From: an uncultured Anaerolineales bacterium | GTDB lineage: Bacteria; Chloroflexota; Anaerolineae; Anaerolineales; UBA11858 | Assembly (NCBI GenBank): GCA_964629085.1 | Contig: CAZVPR010000001.1 | Coordinates: 26,517 to 90,516 of the forward strand | Direction of reading: 5' to 3' | Length of the DNA: 64,000 nucleotides | Shown here: one piece after another, positions 18,538 through 60,813 of the stretch | Layout: each line of letters opens with the position of its first letter | How positions within the stretch are numbered: position 1 is the stretch's first letter | Notes under the pieces: model-generated | The model's database searches: none | What the model was told of the DNA's origin: nothing | What the model saw: only the letters and a program-made list of their open reading frames with translations | Translations under genes and position numbers: made by a program

Positions 18538-18596
18538 GAATTAATATGACAGGGCATTGGGTAGATGTGTGGTTACAGATTATTTGATGATAATTT

Positions 18597-18706
18597 ACCG
18601 CAAAGACGCGAAGGGCACAAAGCAAAGGAAATTCAGGGATAAATATTTCGATATTAGGAAGAGAGACTCTTTGCGGTGTATTGTGGTCTACTTAGCGATC
18701 TTCGCG
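18597..18706. repeat. Long-range inverted repeat / multi-stem element (CGAAG/CAAAG-word type)
   Basis: accgcaaagacgcgaag (18597-18613) matches the reverse complement of cttcgcgtcttcgcggt (18690-18706) at 16 of 17 positions. The 76-nt interior contains a small palindrome (aatat-ttcg-atatt) and further caaag/ctttg words. Confidence 0.7.
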
Positions 18707-18740
18707 TCTTCGCGGTTCAACCTAATACAGTACTTACCTA

Positions 18741-20261
18741 TCAAGGCGATGCATTCTGATTCAGGTCGAAGATAAAGTAGCCATCCCCTTCGGCCATGAG
18801 CAAATAGTTATCGAAAAGGCGCTCCTTCAACTCGGGGTTGTCGTTGAATTCGCCCATTTTAGTGACGACAAAATAATCATATTCATCGATGCGGCGGAGA
18901 ATATCGTTCTTGAAATTACTTACATCTTCCCCAGCCAGAGCGCGGATCTGGATATCGTTGGAGTCCGGCCAACTGTCGTTGCCTACATGTCCATAATAAG
19001 CAAGATAGTAGCCATAAGCATGACTGAGTGAAACGGTCTTCTTGCCGGGCTCGATCAACTCACCGATCTGCTGCCAGTATTGATATTCTTCACGATAATC
19101 GTGGCGAACAAGATTCACGCGCACATCCCAAACTTTGAAAAACGCGCCCCCAATGATCAGGAGCACCACAAACCCCCGCGCCAGGAGCCCGCTATCCACA
19201 GCAGCCAGGCGCTGGAAAACTTCCGATAAAACGACGATTAATGAAATCGCCACTATCAATATTAATGGCAGTTGGTAATAGTCATGCGTCAGGGTGTGAT
19301 AGGCAAAAGTCAGACTGTAAACCCCATAGCCAAACCACAAACCTGCTAATAGGCCGCGTTTACCTTTATCTTTCAATAAAAGGATTCCAGCCAACGCGGC
19401 CAGAACGGTCCCATAACCAGCGATATTCGTTATCATTTCCTGCCAGCGGATGTAGAAGGCCGGGTCACGAAGGAGAGCGGGGAATACCCGGTAGCTGAGC
19501 TGCTGCTGGAGGAAACCAGCAATCCACAAACCGTAAATATTGAATAAAGCCGTAGGCAATATTGTGACCACTGCCATTATCCAGACTTGCTTGTCACGCA
19601 GCGCTTTCCACAGACCCACACCGAACAAAATTAAACCGACATAGCCACCAGCGATAAAGAAGACGGCCACGCTCTTGATATAAATGGCCAAACCGCCCAG
19701 CGCCCCGGCGAGAATTGCCATTTTCAGCGTGCGCATACGATACCAACGCAAAGCGGCCCACAAAGCCCAGGCAATCAAGCAGGTCATCAAAGGGTCAGGT
19801 TGAAAGACTCGGCTGCCAAAGATGCCATAGGGCAAAAACAGAATGTAGAACATAGCCACCAAGGAGCCATCCAAATTACCGAGTTCACGCCCTAAGAGCA
19901 AAACAACCAGCCCAGCCAGCACCCAAAAGATCGATGATAATAAACGCGGAACCCACAACTGCTCCGCGCCGCCAAGCCTGTACAACCAGACTGTGAGCTG
20001 CTCCAGCAATTGAGGCTCGATGGTGGTCTCGTTGTTCCAGGCATACATAGCCGCGGCGCGCTCATCTTCTGGGATATCGTCGCGGCTTTCATAAAATATA
20101 CCGCGGGCGATAATCGCCGAACGGTGCTGGCGAGTGGAATGGAAATCAAAGGGCGGATCGGTCAGATCATAAACACGGATTCCAAGCCCCAGTGCTACTC
20201 CGAATACAACTAAGATTAGAAAAAACCAGGTAGGTTGAAAAAAGTAAAGTTTTTCTTTCAC
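18741..20261 (-). CDS. GT-C fold membrane glycosyltransferase (PMT_2/ArnT-like)
   Basis: 506 aa and polytopic. First loop: YDLTDPPFDFHSTRQHRSAIIARGIFYE. The soluble tail is about 100 aa. There is a 4-nt overlap with the upstream GT2 gene. Confidence 0.65.
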   Translation of the reverse strand: MKEKLYFFQPTWFFLILVVFGVALGLGIRVYDLTDPPFDFHSTRQHRSAIIARGIFYESRDDIPEDERAAAMYAWNNETTIEPQLLEQLTVWLYRLGGAEQLWVPRLLSSIFWVLAGLVVLLLGRELGNLDGSLVAMFYILFLPYGIFGSRVFQPDPLMTCLIAWALWAALRWYRMRTLKMAILAGALGGLAIYIKSVAVFFIAGGYVGLILFGVGLWKALRDKQVWIMAVVTILPTALFNIYGLWIAGFLQQQLSYRVFPALLRDPAFYIRWQEMITNIAGYGTVLAALAGILLLKDKGKRGLLAGLWFGYGVYSLTFAYHTLTHDYYQLPLILIVAISLIVVLSEVFQRLAAVDSGLLARGFVVLLIIGGAFFKVWDVRVNLVRHDYREEYQYWQQIGELIEPGKKTVSLSHAYGYYLAYYGHVGNDSWPDSNDIQIRALAGEDVSNFKNDILRRIDEYDYFVVTKMGEFNDNPELKERLFDNYLLMAEGDGYFIFDLNQNASP

Positions 20262-21253
20262 GCTATCCGCTCCTCATAAAGGAGGTTAATGTTTTCTACA
20301 CCAAATTGTCGCACCGACTCAGGAATCTTTTTCCGTTGTACACTGTAGTATACATCGCCTAACTTCCCCAGGCCTAGCATTGCCAAGAATGCGTAAACGA
20401 TGCGGTGCCACTCTTTCAATGCAGTTTTAGGATGTAAAGAAAATGCTTTGAGATAATTCTTCAAAGCGGGCCAGCCCTTCCCTCCATCCAACAGATAGCG
20501 GGCATTAAACCGATAAGCGCCAGCCTGAATTGAAGATGGAGCCTGCTGAATGATAGCTTGCAAATCTGGCTGGGTTTTCATCCATTCGAGGACTTCCAGG
20601 GCTTCACGCCCAAAACCCTCGGGTTGAGCAACATTTTTTGCAAAAGAATGATGACGGGCAAATGCCCACAAATGCGGAACATACTTCAATGTGGAATGTC
20701 GGGCCATGCGCAGCCACAAATGATGATCCAGCATGTAATGATATTTAGGATTGAGATAACCGGCCTGATCTAACACAGATTTACGAAAAACAACCGCCGG
20801 CTGCCAGATGATATTGAATGCCATCAGGTCTTTCAATGTCCAATCCCCAAAGGTAGCCTCATTTAAGGGCAGGCCATCTTCATTGATTGAGACGGCATTC
20901 CCAAACACCAGACCGACCTCGGGGTGGGCGCGCAGAACCTCGATGGCTTGATTCAACATCCCAGGGGCGTACATATCATCAGAATTCAACCAGGCTACAA
21001 ACTCCCCTCTGGCTCGTGCAAAGCCCTTGTTAATTGCTTCTGCCTGTCCACTGTCGGGTTCCGAGATCCACCAGGCCAGTTGATGGGCAAATTTTTGAAT
21101 GATCTCTACGCTGCCATCGGTCGAGCGGCCATCCACAATGAAATATTCCAGGTCAGGAATTTCCTGAGCCAACACCGAGCGGATGGCAAATTCCAGAAAT
21201 TCGGCCTGATTATAGGATGGGGTGATAATTGTGATCGATGGAGAAGAAGTCAT
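20258..21253 (-). CDS. GT2-family glycosyltransferase (paralog of 17767..18537)
   Basis: 331 aa. ITIITPSYNQAEFLEFAIRSVLAQEIPDLEYFIVDGRSTDGS, and WLNSDDMY. Confidence 0.85.
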   Translation of the reverse strand: MTSSPSITIITPSYNQAEFLEFAIRSVLAQEIPDLEYFIVDGRSTDGSVEIIQKFAHQLAWWISEPDSGQAEAINKGFARARGEFVAWLNSDDMYAPGMLNQAIEVLRAHPEVGLVFGNAVSINEDGLPLNEATFGDWTLKDLMAFNIIWQPAVVFRKSVLDQAGYLNPKYHYMLDHHLWLRMARHSTLKYVPHLWAFARHHSFAKNVAQPEGFGREALEVLEWMKTQPDLQAIIQQAPSSIQAGAYRFNARYLLDGGKGWPALKNYLKAFSLHPKTALKEWHRIVYAFLAMLGLGKLGDVYYSVQRKKIPESVRQFGVENINLLYEERIA

Positions 21254-23037
21254 TATTTGTGATCGATTTGATAAACCTGTAAAGGTGATGATTCTGAAAC
21301 CAATGTTGCCGATGTCAAATCAAGAAACTCAAGAGGGAACTTTTCTTTTTGTAAAACCCCTTCAAATGTTTGCTTACTCTCATCGATGACCACAAATACA
21401 TTCCGAAAACTCCCGCCCCGATCAGAAAATCTATCCCCATCATTCAGTTGATATAGATCAAAATAATACCGAACCAGCGCATCTACCGGGAATGTTGTAA
21501 CAACTACATCGCCGGTTTCTAAAATATTCTCTAAATCTACAGTAACGTTTCTAGCCGGAGAGCCATTTGAGATTTGCTTCGAGAATATTTTTTGCCCGCC
21601 TAAGAATATGGGAGTAAGAATAATCACCAGCAAACCAAACTTGGTCCCTGCTGCGATCCAACGCCTATCCGCAACCAAGCGTCTCAGGGTGAAATTATAG
21701 AAACCCACTATCCCGGCAGCTGCCCAAATCAGGAATACAGGCACAACAAACAACCACATTCGATCAAATGGTGCTACTCTTCTTACGAAAATAAAACCTG
21801 CCGAGAAAAGGATCAATATATAGGCGAAGGATACCCGCGGTTGATCATCCCTATTCTGAAAAAATGGGGCCACTACAAATCCTACAATTAAAATCCATAT
21901 CGTAGGTTCAGGAGTTCCCTTACGGAAAACATCCCAAGTTTCTAACAATCTTTCTGATAGCACACGCCAATATTCAGATTTATCCAGGGGAGCAACAAAT
22001 GAATTACTGGCTACCTGATCAAAACCACTAACAATGAATACCGGTGAATATAACAAGATCACCCAAACAACCGTGATAATCACCATGCCTATCAAATTTC
22101 GAAGAAATCGATTCTCCCGGACTGGTTGAGTATCATTTAGCAGCCAAACCAAGGCCATCCAAATACAGAAAGCGCCAAAGGGAAATAACATCGTCGGGAC
22201 AGTGTAGAAACCAAAGACAGAAAATACCACCATCAAAACCCAGGCAGCCTTATTTGGTATCTTCTGAACATAGGCCCCCAAAGCAATGATTACCAGCGTG
22301 ACCAGGCAAAGGATCGAATATCCACGAGCGTTAGTCGAGTAATTGATCAGAATTGGCGCGAGCCCAATTAAGCCAGCGGAGAGCAGCGCTGTATCTGGAT
22401 CGAATATTCTTCTCGCGGCCAAATATCCTGCCGGAACCAGGAAAATGCCCGCCATAAAGGCTGGCAAGCGCACCACCCAGAGTTGATTGCCAAAAATGCG
22501 ATAAATAATATGCACCAGGATGGAATGGAAAATGTGGTTGTTGGGCAAATGATAATCGCTGATGATGCGTAGCAATGGACGGGAGGCAAAAATATTGAAG
22601 GTATAGGCCTCATCATAAAGGATGGGCCGTTGTAAAAACCTGGCGCTATTGACAATCACACCAACGAAAACGGCCAACAATATGTAACGATGCCAGCGAT
22701 CATCTTCAGCCCAAAACAAGTCTTTGCACAAAGCCTTGATATCCGCGATGATCGCATGCGCAACATCCTTTACCCCATGAACTAATTGGCTTACAAGGCG
22801 TTGGGATACATTCCTGGAAATCACCATCCAGCCGCTGAAACCCATAAATACAGCACCAACCCATTTCAAAAAACTTAGCTGGACGTGAATTTCAGATGTA
22901 AAAAATTCTAATTCGCCGTCTCTGGGAATGGTATCTGCGTAAGGTTTCAAAATCTCGAAAGGGATTAGCGAGAGCAGAAATAGCAAGCTCCCGGCCATCA
23001 GCATTCCCAAAAGAATTATGCCCCACAAGGGCTTCAC
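21253..23037 (-). CDS. GT-C fold membrane glycosyltransferase (PMT_2 / GT39-like)
   Basis: 594 aa and polytopic. ILYDEAYTFNIFASRPLLRIISDYHLPNNHIFHSILVHI carries the DEAY-type first-loop motif. The soluble tail is about 110 aa. Confidence 0.65.
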   Translation of the reverse strand: MKPLWGIILLGMLMAGSLLFLLSLIPFEILKPYADTIPRDGELEFFTSEIHVQLSFLKWVGAVFMGFSGWMVISRNVSQRLVSQLVHGVKDVAHAIIADIKALCKDLFWAEDDRWHRYILLAVFVGVIVNSARFLQRPILYDEAYTFNIFASRPLLRIISDYHLPNNHIFHSILVHIIYRIFGNQLWVVRLPAFMAGIFLVPAGYLAARRIFDPDTALLSAGLIGLAPILINYSTNARGYSILCLVTLVIIALGAYVQKIPNKAAWVLMVVFSVFGFYTVPTMLFPFGAFCIWMALVWLLNDTQPVRENRFLRNLIGMVIITVVWVILLYSPVFIVSGFDQVASNSFVAPLDKSEYWRVLSERLLETWDVFRKGTPEPTIWILIVGFVVAPFFQNRDDQPRVSFAYILILFSAGFIFVRRVAPFDRMWLFVVPVFLIWAAAGIVGFYNFTLRRLVADRRWIAAGTKFGLLVIILTPIFLGGQKIFSKQISNGSPARNVTVDLENILETGDVVVTTFPVDALVRYYFDLYQLNDGDRFSDRGGSFRNVFVVIDESKQTFEGVLQKEKFPLEFLDLTSATLVSESSPLQVYQIDHK

Positions 23038-23057
23038 GAGAGAATATCCATCCCGAT

Positions 23058-23882
23058 TCAGAATAATGAGTTGTACTCGACCTTTGGAAAAACGGTTAAT
23101 TTTCCCCCAATGGTGGCATCGAGCATGCGACGACCGGCTTTTTCGAAGTGCATGCGGGCCAACAAGTAGCCTCGTTCAGAAGTATCCAGATCGGGAAGCT
23201 GCCAGCGGAAGCCTTTACCAAAATACCCGGGATCGAAATGATTGGGGTCATCGCCACCCGAAACTACAGTCGTATTGGGCTTCCCTTCGCTGGTGAAACT
23301 GTGATCCACGCCAATCAAGATAACTTCATCAAAACCCATGTGAAAGGCTAACTGCAAACAAACGTAGGTTACCGTTGCTCCTTCCCAAAGCCGTTCACAC
23401 ACATCATGAGCAAATTTTGGGCCGGTGTACGTCGAAAAGAGAAAATGTGTATTTTCATCGGGCTGGCCCTGGGGATAAAGCAGCCCGCGCGATCGCCAGG
23501 AAAAAAACTTGGGCATCGCTAATGATTGAAAATCCAGGTAACACTGCTCATTGACAAGGTTATTCACCGACACAAGAAAATTCGTGCGAAAACCCCAATC
23601 CGGAAATGCCAGATAAATGCGATTCATCCCAAAGGTGAATTCGTTTTTCAGTTTCGAAACATCCGTATTCTTCAAGCTGGGACCATTTCCAATCACGAAA
23701 CAGCGTTCACCATTATGTACGTCTTTCAACGCTGCCAGACGGCGAATACTCTCTCGTCGCCAGGGATGCATGACAGCCATTGGCCATTGTGCGGCACGTC
23801 GAAGCGCATAGCGCGTCTCACTAATTGGTTGCCAAATGGAGGCGGGAACCAGTGATTTGATTTTCTGCCTGTAATTTGTCAT
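23058..23882 (-). CDS. DUF115 (MAF_flag10/MptE-like) protein resembling CstII-type (GT42) ulosonic-acid transferases
   Basis: 274 aa. CFVIGNGPSLKNTDVSKLKNEFTFGMNRIY aligns by eye with the CstII N-terminus (VIIAGNGPSLKEIDYSRLPNDFDVFRCNQFY). The later block TYVCLQLAFHMGFDEVILIGVDHSF resembles GVYMCAVAIALGYKEIYLSGIDFY. Confidence 0.6.
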   Translation of the reverse strand: MTNYRQKIKSLVPASIWQPISETRYALRRAAQWPMAVMHPWRRESIRRLAALKDVHNGERCFVIGNGPSLKNTDVSKLKNEFTFGMNRIYLAFPDWGFRTNFLVSVNNLVNEQCYLDFQSLAMPKFFSWRSRGLLYPQGQPDENTHFLFSTYTGPKFAHDVCERLWEGATVTYVCLQLAFHMGFDEVILIGVDHSFTSEGKPNTTVVSGGDDPNHFDPGYFGKGFRWQLPDLDTSERGYLLARMHFEKAGRRMLDATIGGKLTVFPKVEYNSLF

Positions 23883-23885
23883 GGG

Positions 23886-24647
23886 TTATTCTGTGCTTAG
23901 GCGAGCTGTCGCGCCCCCATCGACTATCATTGCCTGGCCCGTCATGAAGGAAGATTGTTCTCCATCCGCTAAAAAATAAATCGACTGGGCTATCTCTTCC
24001 GGTAAGCCAATTTTTCCACTAACCGTTTTGCGAGCCAGATTTTCTAGACGATCCATCAGGTTTCCAGCTCCAGCATGGTCTCGGTTCATCCCAGCGCGCA
24101 GCATGGGTGTATCAACTGCACCTGGGAGAATTGAGTTGACGCGAATATTGTCAGGGGCAAATTCAATGGCCATCGCTCTGGTCAGAGCCAGCATACCGCC
24201 TTTACTGGCCGCGTACGCGGCAATATCTTTGGATGTAGCCACGGCGTGCACAGAGGATACATTCACCATCGCCCCGCCTCCCCGGCACTTCAGTAATGGG
24301 TGGGCCAGTTTTGCACTTAGAAACACCGAACGCAAATTTGATGCCATGACCGCATCCCACTCTTCAACAGTAGTCTCTAGGAGTGGCTTAGTAATTTGAT
24401 GAGCAGCGTTATTTACGAGAGCATCTAGAGTATCCGTGAAGCCTTGCGCTTGATTAAAAATCTCTTCTAACGCTGAAGCATCGGATATATCCGCCTGAAT
24501 GAATAGGCCATTATCAGGAAATTCCGAGCCAAAGGGCGCTCGATCCACACCAATTACTTGCCACCCCTTATTCGCAAATAACTGTACCGTAGCGCGACCG
24601 ATGCCGCCTGCTGCGCCGGTAATCAACATTGTTCGTGAGCCAGTCAT
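23886..24647 (-). CDS. Short-chain dehydrogenase/reductase (classical SDR)
   Basis: 253 aa. Cofactor motif ITGAAGGIGRAT, the NNAA motif, and the catalytic YAASKGG. Confidence 0.85.
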   Translation of the reverse strand: MTGSRTMLITGAAGGIGRATVQLFANKGWQVIGVDRAPFGSEFPDNGLFIQADISDASALEEIFNQAQGFTDTLDALVNNAAHQITKPLLETTVEEWDAVMASNLRSVFLSAKLAHPLLKCRGGGAMVNVSSVHAVATSKDIAAYAASKGGMLALTRAMAIEFAPDNIRVNSILPGAVDTPMLRAGMNRDHAGAGNLMDRLENLARKTVSGKIGLPEEIAQSIYFLADGEQSSFMTGQAMIVDGGATARLSTE

Positions 24648-25618
24648 TACTCTCCTGTTTTAAATTCTTCCAATTTTGAACTATCGAGACCCAGCCCATC
24701 TAAAAGGTTTCGAATTGTATTCCAGTGAACCTGTTCCCAAGCCATCGGGCTGGAATTTGCGTTGTGAGGCGCGATCAAAACATTATCCATCTCGAGCAGC
24801 GGACTGGAATTTGGCAGGGGTTCCTCTTCAAAAACATCTAACGCAGCCCCAGCGATAGTGCCATTATTAAGGGCATCGATAAGGGCCACTTCGTCCACAA
24901 TGGGGCCACGAGCCGAGTTGATAAGCACGGCTCCAGGCTTCATCATTGCCAATGTATCAGCATTGATCAAATGTTCGCTGGTTGGATTAAGATCGCAATT
25001 CAAACTCACAAAATCCGCTCGACTAAGCAAATCCACCAAAGTAGTCATCTGCAAACGATGTTCGCGCACAAAATCAGGCCTGATTTCGCGAATATCGTTG
25101 CCCAACACTTCCATGCCAAATACATTGGCTCGCCGAATGACTGCTTTACCGGTATTTCCCACACCTATCACCCCTAGGGTGCACTCATGCAAAGCTCGAC
25201 CAGGGATTTTATCCCATGTGCCGGCTTTCATCGCCCGATCCATCCAGGGTTGCCGGCGTGCAAAAGCAAGCATATACCCAAGAACCGTATCCGCAACCGG
25301 CAATGTAAATGCGTTGGGTGTATTTCCAATTTTAATACCCAGACGTTCACACGCTTCCTGATCAATTGAATCGATGCCCGTCCCCCATTTAGAGATTACC
25401 TTCAAGCGCGGCACACAAACATCCAAAACCTGGGGCGTATAGCGGTCATCACCACAAACGGCCCCATCGAATTGTCCGGCATAGGACAGGATATCTTCTT
25501 CTTCAAGACGTTCTTCCACTTCTGGGACGATTAATTCAATACCATAACTGTCGAACACTGACCGAAAGCGGTCCAAAAATGGGATCATGTACGGAGCGGT
25601 GAAAAGGACAGTATACAT
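24647..25618 (-). CDS. D-isomer-specific 2-hydroxyacid dehydrogenase family (NAD-binding)
   Basis: 323 aa. GVIGVGNTGKAV (GxGxxG), INSARGPIVDE, and the catalytic-His region IAPHNANSS. Confidence 0.85.
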   Translation of the reverse strand: MYTVLFTAPYMIPFLDRFRSVFDSYGIELIVPEVEERLEEEDILSYAGQFDGAVCGDDRYTPQVLDVCVPRLKVISKWGTGIDSIDQEACERLGIKIGNTPNAFTLPVADTVLGYMLAFARRQPWMDRAMKAGTWDKIPGRALHECTLGVIGVGNTGKAVIRRANVFGMEVLGNDIREIRPDFVREHRLQMTTLVDLLSRADFVSLNCDLNPTSEHLINADTLAMMKPGAVLINSARGPIVDEVALIDALNNGTIAGAALDVFEEEPLPNSSPLLEMDNVLIAPHNANSSPMAWEQVHWNTIRNLLDGLGLDSSKLEEFKTGE

Positions 25619-25623
25619 TGATG

Positions 25624-25677
25624 TCAGGTATCAGGTGCCAGGTTTCAGGTATCAGATGCGAATAAAAACCTGATACC
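25624..25677. repeat. Tandem heptamer array (YCAGGTN x4.5) with inverted partner (CAGGT-word type)
   Basis: tcaggta tcaggtg ccaggtt tcaggta tcag spans 25624-25655. cctgatacc (25669-25677) is the exact reverse complement of ggtatcagg within the array. Confidence 0.8.
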
Positions 25678-25690
25678 AAATAACCAATAC

Positions 25691-26362: not shown

Positions 26363-26377
26363 GTCCTGATTATAATC

Positions 26378-41048: not shown

Positions 41049-41053
41049 AGGAA

Positions 41054-41117
41054 AGGTAACAGGAAAACATTGTAAACAGGGCTACAGGATTGCTATTTGT
41101 TACTCCTGTTTACCTGT
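41054..41117. repeat. Hairpin element (ACAGG/TAAACAGG-word type)
   Basis: gtaaacagg (41072-41080) pairs perfectly with cctgtttac (41105-41113). Additional words are aggtaacagg (41054-41063) and acagga (41084-41089). The 13-mer cctgtttacctgt (41105-41117) recurs as a reverse complement at 60763-60775. Confidence 0.7.
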
Positions 41118-42161
41118 CTACCAATCGTTGTTCTTTTCATACCCCCATTTGACCAACATCTCCCCAGCAAATTCTTTGAACACTGCCCGGTCTCTCGCAG
41201 TAAATAATTCTCGCCAAGAACCCGATTTGCCTTTTTTGAGCGGCTCCACCAGTTCACCAGCTTTTTGCTGTTGCCACTTGGCATCGGGGTTGCTGCCCAA
41301 TTCTTCGGTCAACAAATTTTGCAATTCCGGCAGTGAAACATCGGCGCCGAGTAAAGACCACAAGCGCTGCATTTCATTCCAGGGTATTTTGAGCAGATCT
41401 TCGTATCGCACGGAGGCGTATTGCCCTTCCCCATAGAGGCGCTGACCTTCCTGATCGGTCTCGGTGATATTGCGCACCCAACTCTCGGCGGCATGCCGGA
41501 TGCCCTTCTGCGTAAAGATGGATCGTTCGCCAGTCATGAAAGGCTCAGGATTGCTCTCAAATTCAGCGCGAATTGCCCAATCCTGTTTGGTGAGGTGCGC
41601 CTGGGCATCAATGAAAGCCTGAAAACGATGAGAGATAGCTGCATCACGGCCATCACGAATTATGAAGATCAATTTCCCGTCGGGAAATACCTTGTGCATG
41701 CGGCGGACAGCTTCACCATTCAATAAGGCATTGGGACTTTTATCGCCCACACACCTGGCACCCTCCTGTCGGGCTTCTCGTTCCATCACATACTCCACCG
41801 CAGCCCGTAACATCACCGGGGAAAGATCACGACCGCGATTCCAGCGGTTGCTGCGGCGAGCGAGCCATAATTCGATATCCTTGCGATCAACAAAAGCCTC
41901 AAGCGTTGGCTTGCGGGTAAAGAAGTGTCCCTGATAATTGCAATGCACGTCAGGGTGCAATCGAATCAGCCGAGTTAACAAGGTTGTCCCCGAACGCGCA
42001 TGCCCAAATACAAAGAATTTGTCCAGAGGAAAGAATTCCTTGAATTCCGCAACCTCTTCAGGGGTGATTGCCGGAACTTCCCGTAACATCGCAGACGAGA
42101 GTCGTCCTGTGAGTAATACCTGAGCAGTCAATTTCAAGCGATGGGCTATTTTAATAATCAT
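41118..42161 (-). CDS. PAPS-dependent sulfotransferase (second)
   Basis: 347 aa. FGHARSGTTLLTRLI (5'-PSB) and FIIRDGRDAAISHRF (3'-PB). Confidence 0.8.
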   Translation of the reverse strand: MIIKIAHRLKLTAQVLLTGRLSSAMLREVPAITPEEVAEFKEFFPLDKFFVFGHARSGTTLLTRLIRLHPDVHCNYQGHFFTRKPTLEAFVDRKDIELWLARRSNRWNRGRDLSPVMLRAAVEYVMEREARQEGARCVGDKSPNALLNGEAVRRMHKVFPDGKLIFIIRDGRDAAISHRFQAFIDAQAHLTKQDWAIRAEFESNPEPFMTGERSIFTQKGIRHAAESWVRNITETDQEGQRLYGEGQYASVRYEDLLKIPWNEMQRLWSLLGADVSLPELQNLLTEELGSNPDAKWQQQKAGELVEPLKKGKSGSWRELFTARDRAVFKEFAGEMLVKWGYEKNNDW

Positions 42162-43597: not shown

Positions 43598-43637
43598 AAA
43601 ATTTATATTTTGTATTGGTCAGCGAAACTTGAATAAA

Positions 43638-43715
43638 ATCACGAATAGGAGCGAATGACACAAATTGCACGAACATTTTTCAAGGTGTCATTGGTGAAAT
43701 TCGTTGAATCGTGAT
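43638..43715. repeat. Hairpin element copy 2 (CGAAT-word type); homologous to 7809..7885
   Basis: atcacgaataggagcgaatgacac (43638-43661) ... gtgtcattggtgaaattcgttgaatcgtgat (43685-43715). The flank gtcagcgaaacttga (43618-43632) matches 7772-7786 at 14 of 15 positions. Confidence 0.8.
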
Positions 43716-43773
43716 TTAAGATTTGTTTATGCTTTTCTTGATCACCACAAGAATTTGTGAATATTTTTTTATC

Positions 43774-49890: not shown

Positions 49891-49905
49891 AAGAGGCTCA
49901 CAAAT

Positions 49906-52945: not shown

Positions 52946-52996
52946 CGAATAATCACCAAATCTAATTCCGAATACCGAGTAATAAATACCCGATTT

Positions 52997-53755
52997 TTAC
53001 TTCCCAAAATCAACATAATACAGCAAAAGCGGATCGCGCCGCATTTCGCGCGCCGTGAATTCATAAATATCATTAGCCACCATCAGTTTTACTGCGGCTT
53101 CTCCGATCTGGCGGTGTTTGATCAGGCCCTGCTCTTCAGCAAGATCAGCCATGGGATCGACCATGGTATGAACACCTTTTTCGATATCGCGGACCAACAT
53201 TTGGAAGGTATCTTCATACGAACTGCCATCCTCGTCCGTGACCATCCCGGTGAAATCCTTCAAATAGCGATAATCACATCCTTCGAGTTCCTCGACATGA
53301 TGGAAAAAGGTCATGCTGTCGTTGTAAGCCAGGCCAATGACCATGATCTTGCCATTCAAAATGCGCAATTTTCCAAATAGCGAATCGGCTTCATAACTGC
53401 TCTTATAGCGATCTTTGGTCAAATATTCAGCCTGCTTGCCGATAATCGCAAACGAATAAATGGGGTGGAACACACGCAGGCTGCGAGGATCCTGGCGCAC
53501 CAACTCGGTGATAATGCCCATATGCGAGGGCGTTTCGCGCGCGTCCCAGGGTTCGCCTTTGCAAAAATCGAAATTGAACGTCGGCATAATCAGTGTGCCA
53601 TCCTCACCTAAAACATCCAACAAAGCATCGATCACAGTTTGCGGGCCGCCATCTACACCACCGAAGGATTTATAAGAACTGTGAACCAGCAATACATCGC
53701 CAGCCACAACCCCGTGCGCAGAAAATTCGTCAATTAGATTTTGTTTCGTTAGCAT
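52997..53755 (-). CDS. AAC(3)-family (Antibiotic_NAT) N-acetyltransferase, probably acting on an amino sugar
   Basis: 252 aa. GDVLLVHSSYKSFGGVDGGPQTVIDALLDVLGEDGTLIMPTFNF. Confidence 0.75.
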   Translation of the reverse strand: MLTKQNLIDEFSAHGVVAGDVLLVHSSYKSFGGVDGGPQTVIDALLDVLGEDGTLIMPTFNFDFCKGEPWDARETPSHMGIITELVRQDPRSLRVFHPIYSFAIIGKQAEYLTKDRYKSSYEADSLFGKLRILNGKIMVIGLAYNDSMTFFHHVEELEGCDYRYLKDFTGMVTDEDGSSYEDTFQMLVRDIEKGVHTMVDPMADLAEEQGLIKHRQIGEAAVKLMVANDIYEFTAREMRRDPLLLYYVDFGK

Positions 53756-53784
53756 ACTACACTCCGTAATCTCAAATCAATCTA

Positions 53785-53828
53785 CCAGGGATGAACCGGG
53801 ATCATCGGGGATTCTACATTTATCCCTG
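53785..53828. repeat. Word-repeat hairpin (GGGAT-word type)
   Basis: The direct words are ccagggat (53785-92), ccgggat (53796-802) and cggggat (53806-12). The inverted copy atccctg follows at 53822-28. Confidence 0.6.
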
Positions 53829-53851
53829 TTTGTCACTGGTGAATCAAATTC

Positions 53852-54082
53852 CTAATTTCGCTTCTTGCCCGAATAAACAAACCCCTTTTTGATCATCTTG
53901 ATATGCTGGCCCTTATCGATGCCGATCAAGTTGCCGCAGGTGCAAGCCAGCTTATCACCGACAATGTTGTACTCGTACTCGCGTTCAATGCGCGATTTAT
54001 AACAACGCAGCACTTCACCCTTGCCAATTTTTTCGTATTTCCAGAGTTTGCGTTTGCAAGCCGCACACTTGATTGTGAGCAT
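53852..54082 (-). CDS. Small Lys-rich zinc-ribbon protein
   Basis: 76 aa. The CAAC...C and CTC pairs (MLTIKCAACKRKLWKY...LRCYKS...LACTCGNL) suggest metal binding. The ORF sits between two structured gaps. Confidence 0.45.
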   Translation of the reverse strand: MLTIKCAACKRKLWKYEKIGKGEVLRCYKSRIEREYEYNIVGDKLACTCGNLIGIDKGQHIKMIKKGFVYSGKKRN

Positions 54083-54095
54083 AGGTAAGGCGGGA

Positions 54096-54150
54096 GACAG
54101 AAGACGGATGACGGGAATTTCGCTCGGTCCCCGGTCATCGGTCTTCTGTC
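54096..54150. repeat. Long near-perfect hairpin (about 20-bp stem) spanning the stop codon of the upstream methyltransferase gene
   Basis: gacagaagacggatgacggg (54096-54115) matches the reverse complement of cccggtcatcggtcttctgtc (54130-54150) with only one mismatch (g/c). The loop is about 14 nt. No U-run follows on either strand. Confidence 0.75.
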
Positions 54151-54985
54151 ATTTTATAGCCAACACACCAAAAGCACCCGGTTTGGGTATAACGCCAGAA
54201 AAGCCAGCCTTCTTCAAGCGACTGACAACGCCCTGAGTCACTCGTGAGCCCGATTTACTTTCAGGGTTGCCAATGTAGTGAAACATGTGTCCATTGGGTT
54301 TCAACACCCGGAATGCTTGCTGATAGAAAGCCTGCGAATATAAATCCCCAGCCAGGCTGAACATGGGGGGATCATGAATGATGGCGTTGAAACGCTGATC
54401 TTCAAATATCTCGATTTCGTCGTAGCTATCCCCAATAACTTGATTTATTTTATCGTTTTCGAATAAAGCTTGTGACCAGGGGTTGCTGCGTGCGATAGTT
54501 TGTGCGGCAGGGTCTAATTCAATGGTAGTCACCTTATCCGCTGTTTTTGCAGCCAAAATTGCCGTATACCCCAGGCCAGTGGTTGTATCCAAAACATGCC
54601 CGAACGCTCGCCCCAAAGCTTTGAGCTTACTATGCGTATCTCGCCAGGGGTCCGTACCTTTGATGCGGTGCATGGGGATGCCCGAAACCAACATCGTGGG
54701 GGCCGACTCAGTCGGATACAAACTGTACATACGCTCGAAACTATCAGAATAGGTCTGAATGGCTTCGATTTCTCCCCCTTCAAGACGGTAACAGCTATTC
54801 TCACTTTCTGAGATTTCAGCAATTGACGCCCAATCTACCCTCCCTCCATTCGCAAAACTGACCCCCTCACCGTCAAGTTCAACCTGGACTTTTGAAACCT
54901 CCAAGTCGGTCGAAATTTCGACAGTTGTACTCTTGCCCCTGTTCTGAAGCAATTCTTTTGCCTGGAAATGAGATAGGACAATCAT
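54149..54985 (-). CDS. Class I SAM-dependent methyltransferase with DPPxF motif
   Basis: 278 aa. Motif I is [16 protein letters not shown]. Motif IV is [12 protein letters not shown] (N- or O-methyltransferase type). Confidence 0.7.
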
Positions 54986-56097
54986 CAGGATAATGCCAGG
55001 CGATAAGCGTCGAAAAGTTTTGGAAAATTATTTTCCCAGTTTGCGCGTGCTTCAGCTAATTGACGCGCGGCTACGCCCATGGCGGACAACTGTTCCCGTT
55101 GATCCAGTGCCCGAAGGATGCCTTCCCGTAGAGCATCTACATCGCCATCATTGAACAGCCAGCCCACTTCGCCCGGCTGTGTGACCCACTCTTGGTTACC
55201 AGGAATATCCGTCAACAAGACTGGTTTGCCGCTGGCCAGGGCCTCCAGGAGAGAAATGGAGGTGCCGTCGCTGTGGGAAGTGCTAATGTAAAGATCGGCA
55301 GCGCGGTAATAATTGGGCAAATCGTTCTGATTGATCAACCCTGGGAAATGGACCTGATCCTGCACTCTTGCATTGATGAATATTCTGCGTATTTTCGGAG
55401 CCAGGGGGCCATTCCCCAACATTAACAAGCGTAACTCGGGGTGCTGTTGTGCAACCTGAGCAAACGCCTTGGCTAAATCCTCGACGCCATAGATCGGTGC
55501 CCAGCCTCGGGTGGAAAGTAAAACAAAAATATCTTCACCCCACCCCAAACGTCGACGCAAACTGCTATCTTCACCGGGAGAATACTTATCGATATTCGCC
55601 CCCCAAGGAAAAGTGACGATTCGGTCCGGGTTCATGCCATAATCGATGCTTAGATTCCGAATTGTATTACAGTCCCCCAACAAGGCATCGCTGCGCCGTA
55701 ATGTGAATTTTGTTGCCCAGACCCACCACTTATTTTTGTATACATCCATGAGCAGATCATAGCCCCAAGACATGCTCAAAAGCGGGTGAAAACCGGTCAA
55801 TGCTGCTAAAAATGCTGAACGTTGAATCGGCCCTGCCTGGATCAAATCAGGCGAAAACTCACGGATTACTTTCTTCAATCCTGCCAAAAGCTTCAATCCA
55901 TCCTGAAACCTGGCTTCGGATTTTCCACCCACCCAGGGAATAATTTCAATTTCGGGCGGCAGCGGACGGTCATCCAAATCCTGACCGCGTTTCTCCAAAC
56001 GCAAGTACCCCACCTGGTGCTCGGTCTGTGCTAAAGCCGACAGGAAGCGGTGGTCGTGGGTGGTGTAATCGCGAGAGAAGTACAAAATGCGGGTCAT
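54985..56097 (-). CDS. GT4-family (GT-B) glycosyltransferase
   Basis: 370 aa. [32 protein letters not shown]. Confidence 0.85.
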
Positions 56098-56103
56098 CTA
56101 TAT

Positions 56104-56408
56104 AGTGCGGAGTGCGAAGTACTGTGTGTGAAGATCAACTCTTTTTTAGTGATTTTTTAAAGGCGCTGACCATGGCTTTGACTTAATTAGCCTGGTTGTA
56201 ATTGCTTTCAAAGGTTCTTCTTCGATATATCCAACATCAAAAATTGCATAAAGCAGTGATTGAACTTCAACGGCAGAACGACGAGAAAAGCCCAAAAACC
56301 TGGCAAACTCGGGTTTGGATTAACAATCGAAACCTTCAACGCCATTCATCCACCTGAAACCTGACACTTGCTTCTAGATACCCGCAACCACCCCGCACAT
56401 CGCACTTC
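56104..56408. repeat. Inverted GTGCG-word arms enclosing the four-helix-bundle gene remnant
   Basis: The + strand has agtgcggagtgcgaagtac (56104-56122) and ccgcacatcgcacttc (56393-56408). That is two GTGCG words on one side and two CGCAC words on the other. The interior also carries cacctgaaacctgacac (56351-56367), which shares a 12-mer with the reverse complement of the 25624-25655 array. Confidence 0.6.
56146..56319 (-). pseudogene. C-terminal fragment of a four-helix-bundle protein (23S rRNA intervening-sequence protein family)
   Basis: My minus-strand translation is SKPEFARFLGFSRRSAVEVQSLLYAIFDVGYIEEEPLKAITTRLIKSKPWSAPLKNH*. An in-frame TAA lies immediately upstream and there is no start codon. 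The pattern EF.RFL..S..S..E..S.L..A.D.GYI matches my recollection of the family's C-terminal half. Confidence 0.55.
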
Positions 56409-56418
56409 TCACATTGTT

Positions 56419-57501
56419 CTATGCGCCAACATTCTCCCACCGGATATCCATGCCGTAAGGCATATCGATGAGGGCTTTTTTGCCCACCAATTGATCCAAA
56501 TCCCAGGCCATGAGCGCGCCTTCTGCAGCCGGGCGCAGGGGCTCGACCATGTCTGCAGCGAAAGATTCTCCAGCTTTGATATCGCGAGCTGCACGCAGAC
56601 AACGTCTTTGCAGGGAATAGGTTTCTTGTTCGCTCCCGGTAACAAATTTGTCATAGGAGCCAAGGGAACGTTCCAAGGTGCGCACCTGGTGCACCATTTC
56701 GGCCCAAGTCTCCGGGTTCATGGCGAATTTATGGTCCGGGCCTTCGCGGTCGTTACTGTCGGTAAAATGGCGCTCAATAACTCGCGCCCCGATGGCCACC
56801 GCACCGACAATCGGTGCCGGGCTGTGCGTATGATCGGAGAGACCTAATACCACGTCCGGAAACATCGCAGCATACGTCTTGAGCACGTTGATATTCAGAT
56901 GGTCATAATTGGAGTCGTCGGCCGTATAATTGGTATTGCACTGGAACAAAATGATTTGATCGTTGACCGCTTGAACAGCTCGCACGGCACGTACCACATC
57001 ACCCATATCCGCCGCTCCGGTTGCCATCAGGAAAGGTTTACCGGTTTTGGCCATCCGCACTAGCGCATCCGGCCATGACATCAACCCAGAGCCCGCTTTG
57101 AAGGCCGGCACGTAGGGTTCGAGCATATCGATGGCCTCATAATCATAAGGCGAGGAATAATAATGAATTCCCACTTTGTCACACTCTTCTTTGAGAATGG
57201 GAGTCCATTCAAACGGCACCGAGGCATCATCATACACTTCGAAAACGCTCTTGCTCCATTCTGCCTGATGAGAAAGTTGACCGCCCAGCGCTTTGAAACC
57301 GTAATCGGAGACGATCTTAGGGGCGCGGAAATTTTGGAATTTGGCGGCTTCAGCCCCAGCTTCTTCGGCCAGCCGAATCAGCTTTTTGGCACGTTCCAGA
57401 TCGCCATCGTGGTTGGCAGCGATATCGGCAATAAAATACGTGGGGTGGTTCAGGCCAATCTTGCGATCCGCAATTGTAATTTCTGGAGAAGGGATTTTCA
57501 T
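56419..57501 (-). CDS. NeuB-family ulosonic acid synthase (NeuB/PseI/LegI type) with SAF domain
   Basis: 360 aa. YFIADIAANHDGDLERAKKLIRLAEEAGAEAAKFQNF, PAFKAGSG, ATGAADMGDV, GLSDHT, and SAF region CLRAARDIKAGESF. Confidence 0.85.
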   Translation of the reverse strand: MKIPSPEITIADRKIGLNHPTYFIADIAANHDGDLERAKKLIRLAEEAGAEAAKFQNFRAPKIVSDYGFKALGGQLSHQAEWSKSVFEVYDDASVPFEWTPILKEECDKVGIHYYSSPYDYEAIDMLEPYVPAFKAGSGLMSWPDALVRMAKTGKPFLMATGAADMGDVVRAVRAVQAVNDQIILFQCNTNYTADDSNYDHLNINVLKTYAAMFPDVVLGLSDHTHSPAPIVGAVAIGARVIERHFTDSNDREGPDHKFAMNPETWAEMVHQVRTLERSLGSYDKFVTGSEQETYSLQRRCLRAARDIKAGESFAADMVEPLRPAAEGALMAWDLDQLVGKKALIDMPYGMDIRWENVGA

Positions 57502-57544
57502 TGGGCACTCCTTTTCGATATGTCCTTAGGAGAAACAGAAATGT

Positions 57545-57603
57545 GGAACCACGAAGACACAAAGACACTAAGTTTTTTCGACATTGCACCTTCCCTTCGT
57601 GCC
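57545..57603. repeat. Word-repeat region with short stem (CGAAG/GACAC-word type)
   Basis: ggaaccacgaagacacaaagacac (57545-57568). cacgaag (57550-56) pairs with cttcgtg (57595-601). Further cgaag words start at 57612 and 57642. Confidence 0.4.
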
Positions 57604-57648
57604 TGCCCCACCGAAGGTGTGCTCGTCTGCGACGTGCACATCGAAGAT

Positions 57649-57681
57649 GGCCCTACGGGCAACGGCAAGGGCCGCTTTTGG
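57649..57681 (+). terminator. Plus-strand hairpin followed by a short T-run, terminator-like, antisense to the gene flow
   Basis: ggccct-acgggcaacggca-agggcc (6-bp stem, 13-nt loop), then gcttttgg. No plus-strand CDS lies upstream. Confidence 0.25.
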
Positions 57682-57714
57682 CGTGAGTCTTAGTGGTGGA
57701 TAGTAATCAACTGA

Positions 57715-59787
57715 TTATTCTTTTGGAAAACTCTCACATTCCAAAAAGTTGACGACATTTTCAATAATTTCATCTCGCTCGGGGCTGGCAAAAGTCTCCG
57801 CTTCTAAATTTGACCAGATAACGCAAAACATATCCTGTACCCCTTCATCTCCCTTGTAGGCAAAGATGCTTAATGTCTGCGCTCGCTCCCAATCGCCGGC
57901 GCGGCCATAGGCTTCGATAAAGGGATACCATTCGACCTTATTGTCCGTATTGGGTTCAAAATCGTTCTCCTCGACAATTTTTCCTAGCGAAGTAATCTGC
58001 TCCCAATCCTGTTGGTGATAGGCAATACTGGCCTTTTCGAAGTAATAGCACCAGGTGTGGGGAGGTTCTTCGCCAAAGACATCCTGCCGAAGGAGTGTCG
58101 CTTCAGCTGGATCATGGATGATGCGGGAAAGGTTTGAAACTGGGATGGCAGCCTTGGTTATCCCCGTGATATTGGGATGCAAGGCATCTTGATCGCTCAA
58201 CACCCAGACACAACTGCCGGGGAAATCATAAAAGACAACCAGGTTATCATGCCCATACCCATCGAATTTTAGATTGCGGATACGATATTCGATCGGTTGG
58301 TTATCAAACAAGATGCTCATATCAGCAAAAAAATTGTCATCGATCTCAAAGAACCAATAGGGCTGCTGACCGGTTCCTTTGGGGTCTGAATACATGACAT
58401 TGATTGCAGAGCCGGTGGGATGCTCGCCAGTGTAATTGAACAAAGCCCCATCGGCCAGAATAGCAGTATTCTCTTTAACCGCCGGTGCGCGCCAATAAAG
58501 TTGCCAATAGAATTGGCGCTGTTCGACCCACTCCCAACGATATTCATTGGCGATGCGGAAATGAGCGCCAACGCCTAAACCGACGAATATGCTGATCAGA
58601 ATCAGTTGGGTCTTGCGATTGGATGTAATCCAAACCACCAGGCAAACCAGAACAATTCCTGCGCCAATCAAGGCGGGCAAAGCAATACGATCCGAAAAAA
58701 GCCCGCGCGTGATTTCTCGGCCGACCAGCCATCCGGGTAGCATCCCCACAAATATGGCATACATGCCAAATACCAGAGCTTCTTTCAGCCAGCCCGCCTT
58801 TGAGGGGGATTCTTCTAAAGGTGGAGAGATCAAGCTTCCAAAGATATACGCAACTAATCCAACAAAAGCGCCTACAATCCAGGCAATTAATGACGAAGGA
58901 GATTCCAGATCGATCAAATTTGGTTGCAAGGACCCGTACCAGGCCATTGAAAGAATAGCGACAAAATCTCGCAGTACCGTTTGAACAAATCGTCGGATTC
59001 CATTGACGGGTTCAGCGATAATATGGGAGAGCAGCAACAAACTATTCGTGTCACCATCTTCGAAATCCACCCAGACAAAGCGCCAAAGTGCAACCAGAAG
59101 CAAAACCACCAAATAGGGGCTCCATGATTTCGCCAGCTTGGATATTTTTTCCCTGTTGGTGTTCTCTGCGTTCTTGGAAAGAACGATCCAAAGCGCGGCT
59201 GGACGAAGCAATTCCAGGCCCCAAAAATATTCCATCGTCAGCAGGTGTAAAGCGGCAGCGATAACAGACACAACAAACATTGCGATTGGGCGTTTATTAG
59301 ACACCATGGACAGCATCGCCCCCACAGATAATACAAAGAAGGCATACGATATGAAATGCTGGCTGTAGGCAACCGCGATAGATTGCTGCATAAATACGGG
59401 ATGGACGATAAAAATCAATATCATCCAGAAAACTTCTTTTTTTCTGTCAGGCCAAAGTTGCCGCAGAATCCAATAGACACCCCAGGCAGTCAGCCAGCGC
59501 AGCAGTATCGTGAAAATCTGCCAATTCAAAGGGAAAAGACCAAGAATCGGTTCGAATACCAAAAAGGTCCAGGCAGAAAACGGACGGTCAGATTGGTAAA
59601 ACTCCCACAAATCGATTTCGGCGTGTAGGGCCACGAATGCGGTCCAATCATCGAAATATAGTCCTAATTGCGAGGCCAACAAGCCGTAGGTGAGAAAGCT
59701 TACTACCAACAGGAATAACGGAGCACTCCACCATTGCTGGAAGTATTTCGAATATTTGCTCAAATCAGTGTATTTCGTCAAATCCAT
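57715..59787 (-). CDS. Large polytopic membrane protein (possible GtrII/GT-C-like glycosyltransferase) with C-terminal soluble helical domain
   Basis: 690 aa. The first loop LGLYFDDWTAFVALHAEIDLWEFYQSDRPFS has a DD motif. It has 12 or more TMs and a soluble tail of about 230 aa. Confidence 0.45.
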   Translation of the reverse strand: MDLTKYTDLSKYSKYFQQWWSAPLFLLVVSFLTYGLLASQLGLYFDDWTAFVALHAEIDLWEFYQSDRPFSAWTFLVFEPILGLFPLNWQIFTILLRWLTAWGVYWILRQLWPDRKKEVFWMILIFIVHPVFMQQSIAVAYSQHFISYAFFVLSVGAMLSMVSNKRPIAMFVVSVIAAALHLLTMEYFWGLELLRPAALWIVLSKNAENTNREKISKLAKSWSPYLVVLLLVALWRFVWVDFEDGDTNSLLLLSHIIAEPVNGIRRFVQTVLRDFVAILSMAWYGSLQPNLIDLESPSSLIAWIVGAFVGLVAYIFGSLISPPLEESPSKAGWLKEALVFGMYAIFVGMLPGWLVGREITRGLFSDRIALPALIGAGIVLVCLVVWITSNRKTQLILISIFVGLGVGAHFRIANEYRWEWVEQRQFYWQLYWRAPAVKENTAILADGALFNYTGEHPTGSAINVMYSDPKGTGQQPYWFFEIDDNFFADMSILFDNQPIEYRIRNLKFDGYGHDNLVVFYDFPGSCVWVLSDQDALHPNITGITKAAIPVSNLSRIIHDPAEATLLRQDVFGEEPPHTWCYYFEKASIAYHQQDWEQITSLGKIVEENDFEPNTDNKVEWYPFIEAYGRAGDWERAQTLSIFAYKGDEGVQDMFCVIWSNLEAETFASPERDEIIENVVNFLECESFPKE

Positions 59788-59797
59788 AATTGAAAAA

Positions 59798-60721
59798 TCA
59801 GGCCTCGGCCATACAAAGGTCCCGAACCTGCTGTGGATAATTCTGTTGATAAAGCTGGTAAAAGCGCTCGATCCCTGTGGATAATGTCGGGGGGACTCGC
59901 CCTAAATCGTGGATAAGTTTGTCAACATTCAGAGAAAGCTGTGGAGAACGTACAGCAGTGAGCCCGCCTTCGGACACGGAAACAGGCGCAATCAGGTCTG
60001 AATCAAAGCCAAACTTATTGGCGATGGCCACGCCAAAATCATATTTAGTGGAACTCTCGCTGCTGACCACATGATAGAGACCACTCAAGTTTTTATCAAG
60101 CATGCCAAAAAACAGATCAGCAATGTCATTCACCAATAAGGGGCAAAAATATACATCTGTGAATCCTTTGATCTGATTCCCTGCCTTCAGGTTGTTGAAG
60201 AAAAATTCTGCCAGACTGCGCTTTCCACTAGGACTCCATCCGAAAATGTTGATGCGTGCCACAATAGCATTTGAAGATGCATCCAAGACAGCCCGTTCTC
60301 CATCGAGTTTCGTCTGTGCGTAAATATTGATGGGGGTAGGTTCATCATCCTCGCGATAATCACCCTGTTGACCATCGAACACAGCATCAGTAGAGACATG
60401 CAACAGGCGCGCTCCGCCCCTGGCGACATGTTTCGCCAGTTTGCCAGGTAATTCTGTATTCAGATTGCTGGCCAACTCAGGTTCACGTTCGCACTCATCT
60501 ACATTGGCCAGTGCGGCGCAGTGGATCACCCAATCGGGTTGTGTCTCATCAAGGATGCGCTCCACTACACCGGGATCGAGCAAGTCGGCCACCACGGGCG
60601 TGAAGGCCGCTGTTTTCTGGGGGCAGCTACGATCCACCCCGAAAACAGTGTGGTTACGGGCGGCTTCCAAGGCCAAATTGCTGCCCAATAGTCCGCCTGT
60701 ACCGGTAATCAATACGCGCAT
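59798..60721 (-). CDS. RmlD-like NAD(P)H-dependent nucleotide-sugar 4-reductase (extended SDR)
   Basis: 307 aa. MRVLITGTGGLLGSNL, VIHCAALANVDECE, and YAQTKLDGE (YxxxK). A GAGGTGA RBS is present. Confidence 0.75.
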   Translation of the reverse strand: MRVLITGTGGLLGSNLALEAARNHTVFGVDRSCPQKTAAFTPVVADLLDPGVVERILDETQPDWVIHCAALANVDECEREPELASNLNTELPGKLAKHVARGGARLLHVSTDAVFDGQQGDYREDDEPTPINIYAQTKLDGERAVLDASSNAIVARINIFGWSPSGKRSLAEFFFNNLKAGNQIKGFTDVYFCPLLVNDIADLFFGMLDKNLSGLYHVVSSESSTKYDFGVAIANKFGFDSDLIAPVSVSEGGLTAVRSPQLSLNVDKLIHDLGRVPPTLSTGIERFYQLYQQNYPQQVRDLCMAEA

Positions 60722-60731
60722 GTTTCACCTC

Positions 60732-60813
60732 GTGTACCTGTCCGCCTGTTTTTCTCCTGAATACAGGTAAACAGGTACACAAGGTAAATTTGCATGTTAT
60801 GTTAATTTACCTT
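60732..60813. repeat. Two adjacent hairpins between pseB and the reductase gene (ACAGG-word type plus a 10-bp perfect palindrome)
   Basis: Hairpin 1: gtgtacctgtccgcctgt (60732-49) pairs with acaggtaaacaggtacac (60763-80). Hairpin 2: aaggtaaatt (60781-90) pairs with aatttacctt (60804-13) perfectly, with a 13-nt loop. Its right arm encodes the last pseB codons. Confidence 0.75.

Follow-up and report, generated by a model that had tools for sequence, protein, structure and literature searches.

Short tandem heptamer repeats have been catalogued in intergenic bacterial DNA since 1990 and have, to our knowledge, no agreed origin or function; as far as we know, the intervening sequences (IVS) of ribosomal RNA (rRNA) and the S23p open reading frame (ORF) within them are equally unexplained. 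S23p (PF05635) is a pentameric four-helix-bundle protein related to Avd. Here we analyse a family of word-repeat hairpins, built from tandem copies of a short word and inverted copies of the same word, that lie between the genes of a 64,000-nucleotide stretch of DNA from an uncultured Anaerolineales bacterium (the window, C1:26517-90516 of a metagenome-assembled genome of 5.39 Mb in 272 contigs). The identity of these features is well supported, and the hairpins are probably gene-less or gene-decayed forms of two related palindromic cassettes that occupy operon gaps and whose stems would be cut by RNase III.

The closest described system is the 23S rRNA IVS of Coxiella burnetii, in which a terminal stem of 28 bp is accompanied by three GACAGAT heptamers ahead of the S23p start; strains differ in the number of units, the ORF is undergoing decay, and RNase III cleaves within the stem (PMC4990558). 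The elements analysed here resemble this IVS and that of Leptospira in their long terminal inverted-repeat stem and in the heptamers just upstream of the S23p ORF, and also in their variable unit copy number, the reductive decay of the ORF and the existence of ORF-less versions, which for the IVS are found in other bacteria (PMC4990558). Inverted repeats in the window have arms of 20-29 nt that are 79-90% complementary, equivalent to an IVS-like stem of about 20-30 bp, and at 56098-56418 an S23p ORF follows tandem heptamers in the loop, there as a remnant; the other window hairpins are ORF-less. Unlike the IVS, which are inserted in helix 9, 25 or 45 of 23S rRNA, all element copies examined here sit between protein-coding genes of operons and most have no ORF, and RNase III cutting, proven for the rRNA elements, would apply here by analogy.

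Intergenic tandem 7-nt units are also known as the convergent GGGAATC arrays of Xanthomonas and the heptamers of Nostoc (PMC4692102), as the STRR of cyanobacteria, as the long simple-sequence repeats of Mrazek, and as TAACTGA repeats (PMC4679880). Like those arrays, the present elements contain head-to-tail 7-nt units in intergenic DNA, are mostly found between co-directional and rarely between divergent genes, have G-rich arrays that converge, and differ in length among related species. Published heptamer studies describe one word per genome, long arrays, G-quadruplex or translational roles and no cargo gene, whereas the arrays here are short (2-6 units), their words vary by locus, and they are associated with two cargo families.

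A third likeness is to Ssn/NTS (PMC11893778) and to the repetitive extragenic palindromic (REP) sequences and REPINs that accompany RAYT (PMC3733652), in which a small nuclease-type gene is also framed by a far more numerous dispersed repeat. The folds differ, being PD-(D/E)XK and a four-helix bundle here and GIY-YIG and HUH Y1 there, and the repeats here are short-unit arrays and not one fixed motif, on which any action of the proteins would be hypothetical. Finally, 23S_rRNA_IVP genes between cas genes provide a precedent for S23p inserted within an operon, as between cmr3 and cmr2; they were read as pointing to possible CRISPR-associated functions, and flanking arrays were not described (PMC3936711). 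The second cargo family found here, PF13366, is listed as being of unknown function (PMC3424549). In our literature search, no publication connected heptamer hairpins in operon gaps with S23p cassettes, and none connected CRCNNAK hairpins with GxxExxY genes. Heptamer arrays and rRNA IVS are each known separately; the link between them, together with the two cargo-specific classes, appears to be new.

Cassette arms and cargo genes

A six-frame search of the genome with PF05635 found eight places, one of which (C1:82704-82856, window 56188-56340) lies exactly between two GTGCG arrays. Inverted arrays of 7-nt units, the purine-rich one lying upstream of the gene, were visible by eye at seven of the eight, the exception being C46, where they were not clear. 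All six places whose neighbours were read have the gene in sense orientation between co-directional genes. The arms of these class A cassettes are made of 3-6 tandem 7-8-nt units with a word specific to the locus. Within the same gene cluster as the window hairpins, 1.7 kb past the window end, an intact 120-residue S23p gene (PF05635, TIGR02436; C1:92192-92554, minus strand) stands between GACCGNN and CCGTCNN arrays, and the upstream arm of this cassette (C1:92234-92533) shares the 13-mer GAAGACGGATGAC with the hairpin at 54096-54150. The words GGTATNN, TAGTCNN and GACCGNN are found in cassettes and also in many of the genome's gene-less hairpins.

The PF05635 family was present in 19 of 20 related genomes, at 1-17 copies. 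When the genes of the relatives were put through an automatic test for periodic inverted flanks, 20 of 29 passed (about 26 by eye), compared to 2 of 657 control small genes from this genome (Fisher p 1e-29). One of the two passing controls turned out to encode a GxxExxY/PDDEXK_3 protein (PF13366, TIGR04256), a nuclease-fold family with six places in the genome, all six standing between inverted arrays whose 8-10-nt units are of the CACGAAG, CGCAGAG, CACGGAT or CACAGAG type. Two or more chained CRCNNAK units on each side were found for 17 of 29 GxxExxY genes in the relatives, 0 of 29 S23p genes and 1 of 653 controls, indicating that there are two classes whose arms are specific to the cargo. 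Class B arms consist of 8-10-nt CRCNNAK units such as CACGAAT and CGCGAAG. Inverted pairs of CRCNNAK arrays number 45 in the genome, compared to 7 in a shuffle, and there are only six GxxExxY places, so most class B hairpins are gene-less. The initial annotation had suggested decayed relatives of one mobile element type as one possibility, which came near the truth in all but the number, since there are two types and each has its own cargo gene.

Word-repeat hairpins were also enriched throughout the intergenic DNA of the genome, a comparison that the initial annotation had proposed. Under a strict definition (one 5-mer occurring two or more times at 6-11-nt spacing and then, within 120 nt, in two or more inverted copies), 37 intergenic hits were found, and three block-shuffles gave 1, 3 and 5; the coding fraction, which is ten-fold larger, gave 33 hits compared to 17-21. 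Alignment of DNA found periodic inverted repeats in 70 of 2228 gaps and in 2 of 2228 coding controls, and local folds reached z<-2 in 37% of 1886 gaps and 8.5% of coding controls. Among 324 long-armed gap hairpins, 53 were periodic at p<=0.01, with a lag of 7 in 31 and of 8 in 13. Tandem Repeats Finder (TRF), at a score of at least 36 in a genome that is 90% coding, returned 31 intergenic and 26 coding arrays of period 7, and 23 and 17 of period 8; a TRF 'partner word' test that used 4-5-mers failed to tell intergenic and coding DNA apart. Simply counting a 5-mer together with its complement over 100-nt windows gave only ~1.5-2.6-fold enrichment, and these counts were superseded by the spacing-aware definitions. 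The fold-, alignment- and TRF-based catalogues each recover only part of the window elements; the genome total lies between ~60 and a few hundred, with no single figure.

The placement of these elements is characteristic. Among 103 periodic elements, 87 (84%) lie between co-directional genes, 11 between convergent and 5 between divergent ones; compared to other structured gaps, convergent ones are under-represented. In the median, the 5' arm begins 5 nt past the stop codon, and 16 nt lie between the end of the 3' arm and the next start. A full cassette would be a small, promoter-less unit in sense orientation, wedged between a stop codon and the ribosome-binding site of the next gene, with an S23p gene in class A and a GxxExxY gene in class B. 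The purine-rich arm usually comes first, which is an intrinsic handedness of the palindrome; a reading of this order relative to transcription was dropped, as the arm order of a palindrome is identical on both strands. In cassettes the handedness sets a purine-rich stretch right upstream of the cargo ORF, at the position expected of a ribosome-binding site, which is also the arrangement in Coxiella (PMC4990558).

Two other repeat arrangements were seen outside the window. At C235:1950-2330 (minus strand) a small gene of the carboxymuconolactone-decarboxylase family (PF02627) lies amid long C-rich and G-rich periodic inverted arrays, and could be either cargo of a third kind or an insertion beside a hairpin. 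GGGTGAG/CTCACCC arrays with a conserved core (...CGCTTCGCT...CCCGCC...GGCGTCCCAG...) occur at C6:71316-71552, C9:10797-10923, C66:21795-22014 and C48:6404-6483, and look like a separate multi-copy family.

Word-repeat elements of the window

The window encodes glycosyltransferases, a sulfotransferase and sugar-nucleotide enzymes, with nearly all genes on the minus strand, and by this gene content is a long polysaccharide gene cluster. For one of the encoded proteins, every relative found belongs to uncultured Anaerolineales (Chloroflexota). All window gaps were read on both strands, each claimed word and coordinate was re-checked, and the sense-strand RNA of each element was folded against 200 dinucleotide shuffles (z below, with the folded interval). 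The elements are as follows, class B first and then class A with its S23p remnant.

7809-7885, no strand: class B hairpin of 9-10-nt CACGAAT/GCGAAT units with a 19-nt loop; about four related copies elsewhere in the genome (7800-7895, z -3.5)
18597-18716, no strand: class B hairpin in which ACCGCAAAGACGCGAAGG... pairs with ...TCTTCGCGTCTTCGCGGT; 8-nt CRCNNAK units, 3+3 chained, 68-nt loop (18590-18722, z -5.7)
43638-43715, no strand: class B hairpin, paralogue of 7809-7885 over 37 nt at 95% identity (43630-43722, z -3.1)
57545-57603, no strand: class B element made of CACGAAGA CACAAAGA CACTAAG, with an inverted arm that is partial
25624-25677, no strand: class A element of five 7-nt TCAGGTA-type units and one inverted copy, period 7 (p=0), spanning the entire gap from stop codon to next start codon (25619-25690, z -2.3)
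41054-41117, no strand: class A hairpin of 8-nt units around ACAGG/CCTGT, occupying all of a 69-nt gap (41049-41122, z -2.9)
53785-53828, no strand: weak class A-like element, three GGGAT and one ATCCC, downstream of a 76-residue small ORF
54096-54150, no strand: class A hairpin of 7-nt GACCGNN/GACGGNN units, 20-nt arms 90% complementary (54090-54155, z -6.2)
56104-56122, no strand: arm of a decayed S23p cassette (class A), GTGCG heptamers on the plus strand; the downstream arm in gene orientation
56146-56340, minus strand: S23p/23S_rRNA_IVP gene remnant (PF05635), model positions 47-97, with one internal TAA
56393-56408, no strand: second arm of the same S23p cassette, CGCAC on the plus strand, upstream of the gene remnant
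60724-60788, no strand: class A-like hairpin whose chirality is reversed, the pyrimidine-rich arm coming first (60720-60796, z -9.8)

The four longest inverted repeats of the window all belong to this set, and no Rfam family matched anywhere in the window. On re-reading, the words and coordinates of the initial annotation were correct apart from one slip: the 13-mer at 41105-41117 recurs as described, and a 12-mer also recurs as its reverse complement, starting at 25639 and not at 25638. Copies of CGAAT number three forward and three inverted in 7809-7885 and two plus one in 43638-43715; CAGGT has four forward and one inverted in 25624-25677; ACAGG has three plus two in 41054-41117 and two plus two in 60732-60780; GGGAT at 53785-53828 has three and one; GTGCG has two at 56104-56122 and two inverted at 56393-56408; and GACAGAAGAC has one of each. 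The claim that such hairpins fill nearly every gap of this size was overstated, as elements occur in 8 of the 12 gaps of at least 60 nt in 18538-60813 and in 9 of 15 across the window. Seven of the nine hairpins folded were more stable than their shuffles (z -2.3 to -9.8); those at 53780-53832 and 57540-57610 were not.

Several smaller features of the window gaps were recorded alongside. A direct repeat, TCTTGCACAT, at 7752-7761 and 7921-7930, inside a 14-of-15-nt match, flanks a 170-nt segment that contains the CGAAT hairpin; this repeat around 7752-7935 could reflect a target duplication or have matched by chance. The 76-residue ORF at 53852-54082 (minus strand) has a CxxC ... CxC spacing that is zinc-ribbon-like and lies in a 393-nt gap between two hairpins of different words. 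It had no Pfam or NCBIfam match and, with no family and two different flanking hairpins, was not taken as cargo. An unannotated small ORF on the plus strand, at 1163-1528, is followed by a canonical terminator, AAACCCGGCAACTGATTGCCGGGCTTTTGT, and its gap holds no word hairpin.

Orthologous gaps and RNA structure

Orthologous gaps in relatives were compared, as the initial annotation had proposed, and revealed both presence/absence and word turnover. The gap orthologous to 56098-56418 was located in 13 genomes of the same genus. In one of them, G004, it holds an intact 120-residue S23p gene between arrays of the same GTGCG word (CGTGCGATGTGCGAAGTGCGGTGTGCG ... CGCACGAAGCACTCCGCAC). The window copy is 137 nt shorter than that of G004 and has an internal stop; its 49-residue ORF (56146-56295) keeps a 48-residue stretch that matches residues 68-115 of the protein of G004 at 52% identity (E 3e-15). 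Eleven other congeners have gene-less hairpins of other words (AGCGNNN, AACGTTN, GTTGAAN, ACGTAAA), and in one the gap is nearly empty.

Other gaps showed a similar turnover. At 25619-25690 the closest relatives found have only a few nucleotides, and more distant Anaerolineales have hairpins of other words (GGTAT, ATCAGG, ATCAGTA) or tandem units only. At 60722 a homologous full hairpin is present in five species of the genus, the 3' arm only in three, and a 5-nt gap in three. The 18538-18740 element was found in this genome only, with no orthologous gap in congeners (loci L192-L203): a different gene abuts the GT2 gene (17767-18537) upstream in the congeners, the upstream gene here is of the PMT_2 family, and the class B hairpin at the junction of the two thus coincides with a synteny break. 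This pattern of presence, absence and word turnover suggests that the elements are fast-evolving, largely selfish insertions.

The 60722 hairpin looks to be selected as RNA, judging from its alignment across congeners. Its cells are paired in 88% of cases, compared to 42-50% in slid controls; 7 of 26 pairs are compensated, a value reached by 5 of 500 shuffles; and on the sense strand it has 25 G.U cells and 3 C.A cells. The 3' arm of this hairpin (-39 kcal/mol) holds the Shine-Dalgarno sequence GAGGTG of the gene at 59798-60721 (60760-60796), and congeners without the 5' arm retain the Shine-Dalgarno-bearing 3' arm. Across 87 co-directional elements, wobble pairs had no sense-strand bias (137 sense, 161 antisense), which argues against general selection on sense-strand RNA structure, and fold energies favoured neither strand (23:23).

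A role in mRNA processing is plausible by analogy, because RNase III cuts rRNA intervening sequences (PMC4990558). Units would multiply and be homogenised through replication slippage and arm-to-arm correction, and on transcription of the operon the arms would form a double-stranded RNA stem of 20-30 bp. Because the Coxiella IVS has the same build and this genome has an RNase III gene (C5:67043-67411), the transcribed hairpins would be expected to be RNase III substrates. Cutting of the stem, as in the identically built rRNA IVS stems, would divide the polycistronic mRNA into fragments that still carry stubs of the stem.

Competing explanations and consequences

Several observations weigh against the cassette explanation. 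Copy-and-paste mobility is unsupported: most window elements are without a close paralogue (blastn found no second copy in the genome for 7 of 11 window arms or elements, and the CGAAT family has ~5), and no target-site duplication was evident at sites other than 7752-7935. Two elements fold no better than their shuffles (53780-53832, z -0.8; 57540-57610, z -1.7). The purine-rich arm comes first in 23 of 24 cassettes but only in 56 of 84 gene-less periodic hairpins, and the gene calls are ORF-based, which makes the gap statistics approximate. Gene-less hairpins could in principle have arisen in place, with cargo genes homing to them.

That last possibility, in which hairpins arise locally by slippage and inverted duplication, are kept as useful operon RNA stems (to stabilise or process the mRNA, or to occlude the ribosome-binding site of the next gene) and are then lodged in by cargo genes, would explain why words differ at almost every locus, why most elements are unique, and why the 56098 gap holds some word hairpin in 12 of 13 congeners. 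The paired and compensated 60722 hairpin, with its excess of G.U over C.A cells and its embedded Shine-Dalgarno sequence, is likewise in its favour. However, random local origin does not predict arms of a type specific to the cargo class (17/29 and 0/29), nor cargo that decays in place between unchanged arms; closest relatives are hairpin-free at the 25619 and 60722 gaps, and the genome-wide wobble counts have no sense-strand bias. We regard local origin as possible but rather unlikely.

The unit arrays could also be phased binding sites for the cargo proteins, with the S23p ring reading 7-nt units and the GxxExxY nuclease 9-nt units, in a partnership like Ssn/NTS or RAYT/REP. This proposal overlaps with the cassette explanation and adds to it a mechanism of spread and upkeep. 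It is consistent with class-specific arms and with arrays of 3-6 units beside a protein whose nearest solved structure, XCC0516 of Xanthomonas (2GSC), has five chains in its one PDB entry and has been described as a homopentamer (PMC4990558); small nucleases framed by repeats that they cut provide a precedent (PMC11893778). S23p proteins from non-orthologous loci were also more alike when they shared an arm word (median identity 0.44, compared to 0.35; p 1.5e-4), but this correlation fits equally well with arms and gene moving together, and the GxxExxY proteins had none (0.41 and 0.42, p 0.83). Binding or cutting of the arms is only predicted, cargo genes are far fewer than gene-less hairpins, and for many words the genome has no cargo copy, all of which make such readers quite unlikely as the main explanation.

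Repeats of the REP type, bacterial interspersed mosaic elements (BIMEs), REPINs or MITEs (miniature transposable elements with inverted repeats), mobilised by a transposase encoded elsewhere, are highly improbable, although the elements are intergenic palindromes, Y1_Tnp (PF01797) genes occur at four places in the genome, and a 10-15-nt direct repeat brackets 7752-7935. The REP/BIME membership offered by the initial annotation did not hold: blastn found no shared high-copy consensus, no word arrays lie beside the four PF01797 places with their Y1/RAYT-type genes, the arms are tandem units and not a fixed REP sequence, and copies are not near-identical. No related insertion sequence was found either, and the elements have no insertion-sequence-like terminal repeats in common with any transposase gene. 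Unusual intrinsic terminators or attenuators without a U-run are barely credible, since the stable stems and the UUUUAUU that follows one of nine hairpins (43630-43722) stand against a hairpin-plus-T-tail scan that none of them passes and whose sites occur at shuffle frequency, in line with the initial annotation's view that these are not canonical terminators, and against a co-directional, mid-operon position, a few nucleotides before the next start codon, with convergent gaps under-represented.

The explanation as gene-less or gene-decayed cassettes of two classes places the same architecture as the rRNA IVS in operon gaps, with or without cargo and decaying in place, and so joins the puzzle of the heptamer repeats to that of the IVS in a testable way. 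It offers a testable origin for short tandem repeats between bacterial genes. Annotation is confused by the gaps, small ORFs and pseudogenes to which the elements give rise, and the elements mark sites of rearrangement, such as the synteny break at the 18538 element. Long double-stranded RNA stems in operons should shape mRNA processing and downstream translation.

A wider and tentative idea, which we consider unlikely, is that S23p rings and GxxExxY nucleases are sequence-specific array readers that form two partnership classes, with periods of 7 and 9-10 nt, in many phyla, and that the gene-less hairpins are their dispersed targets. If this were true, intergenic heptamer repeats such as STRR, GGGAATC and TAACTGA would be footprints of these systems, and two very large families of 'hypothetical' proteins would gain functions. 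Cargo proteins that read their arms would also be a source of new sequence-specific nucleic-acid tools.

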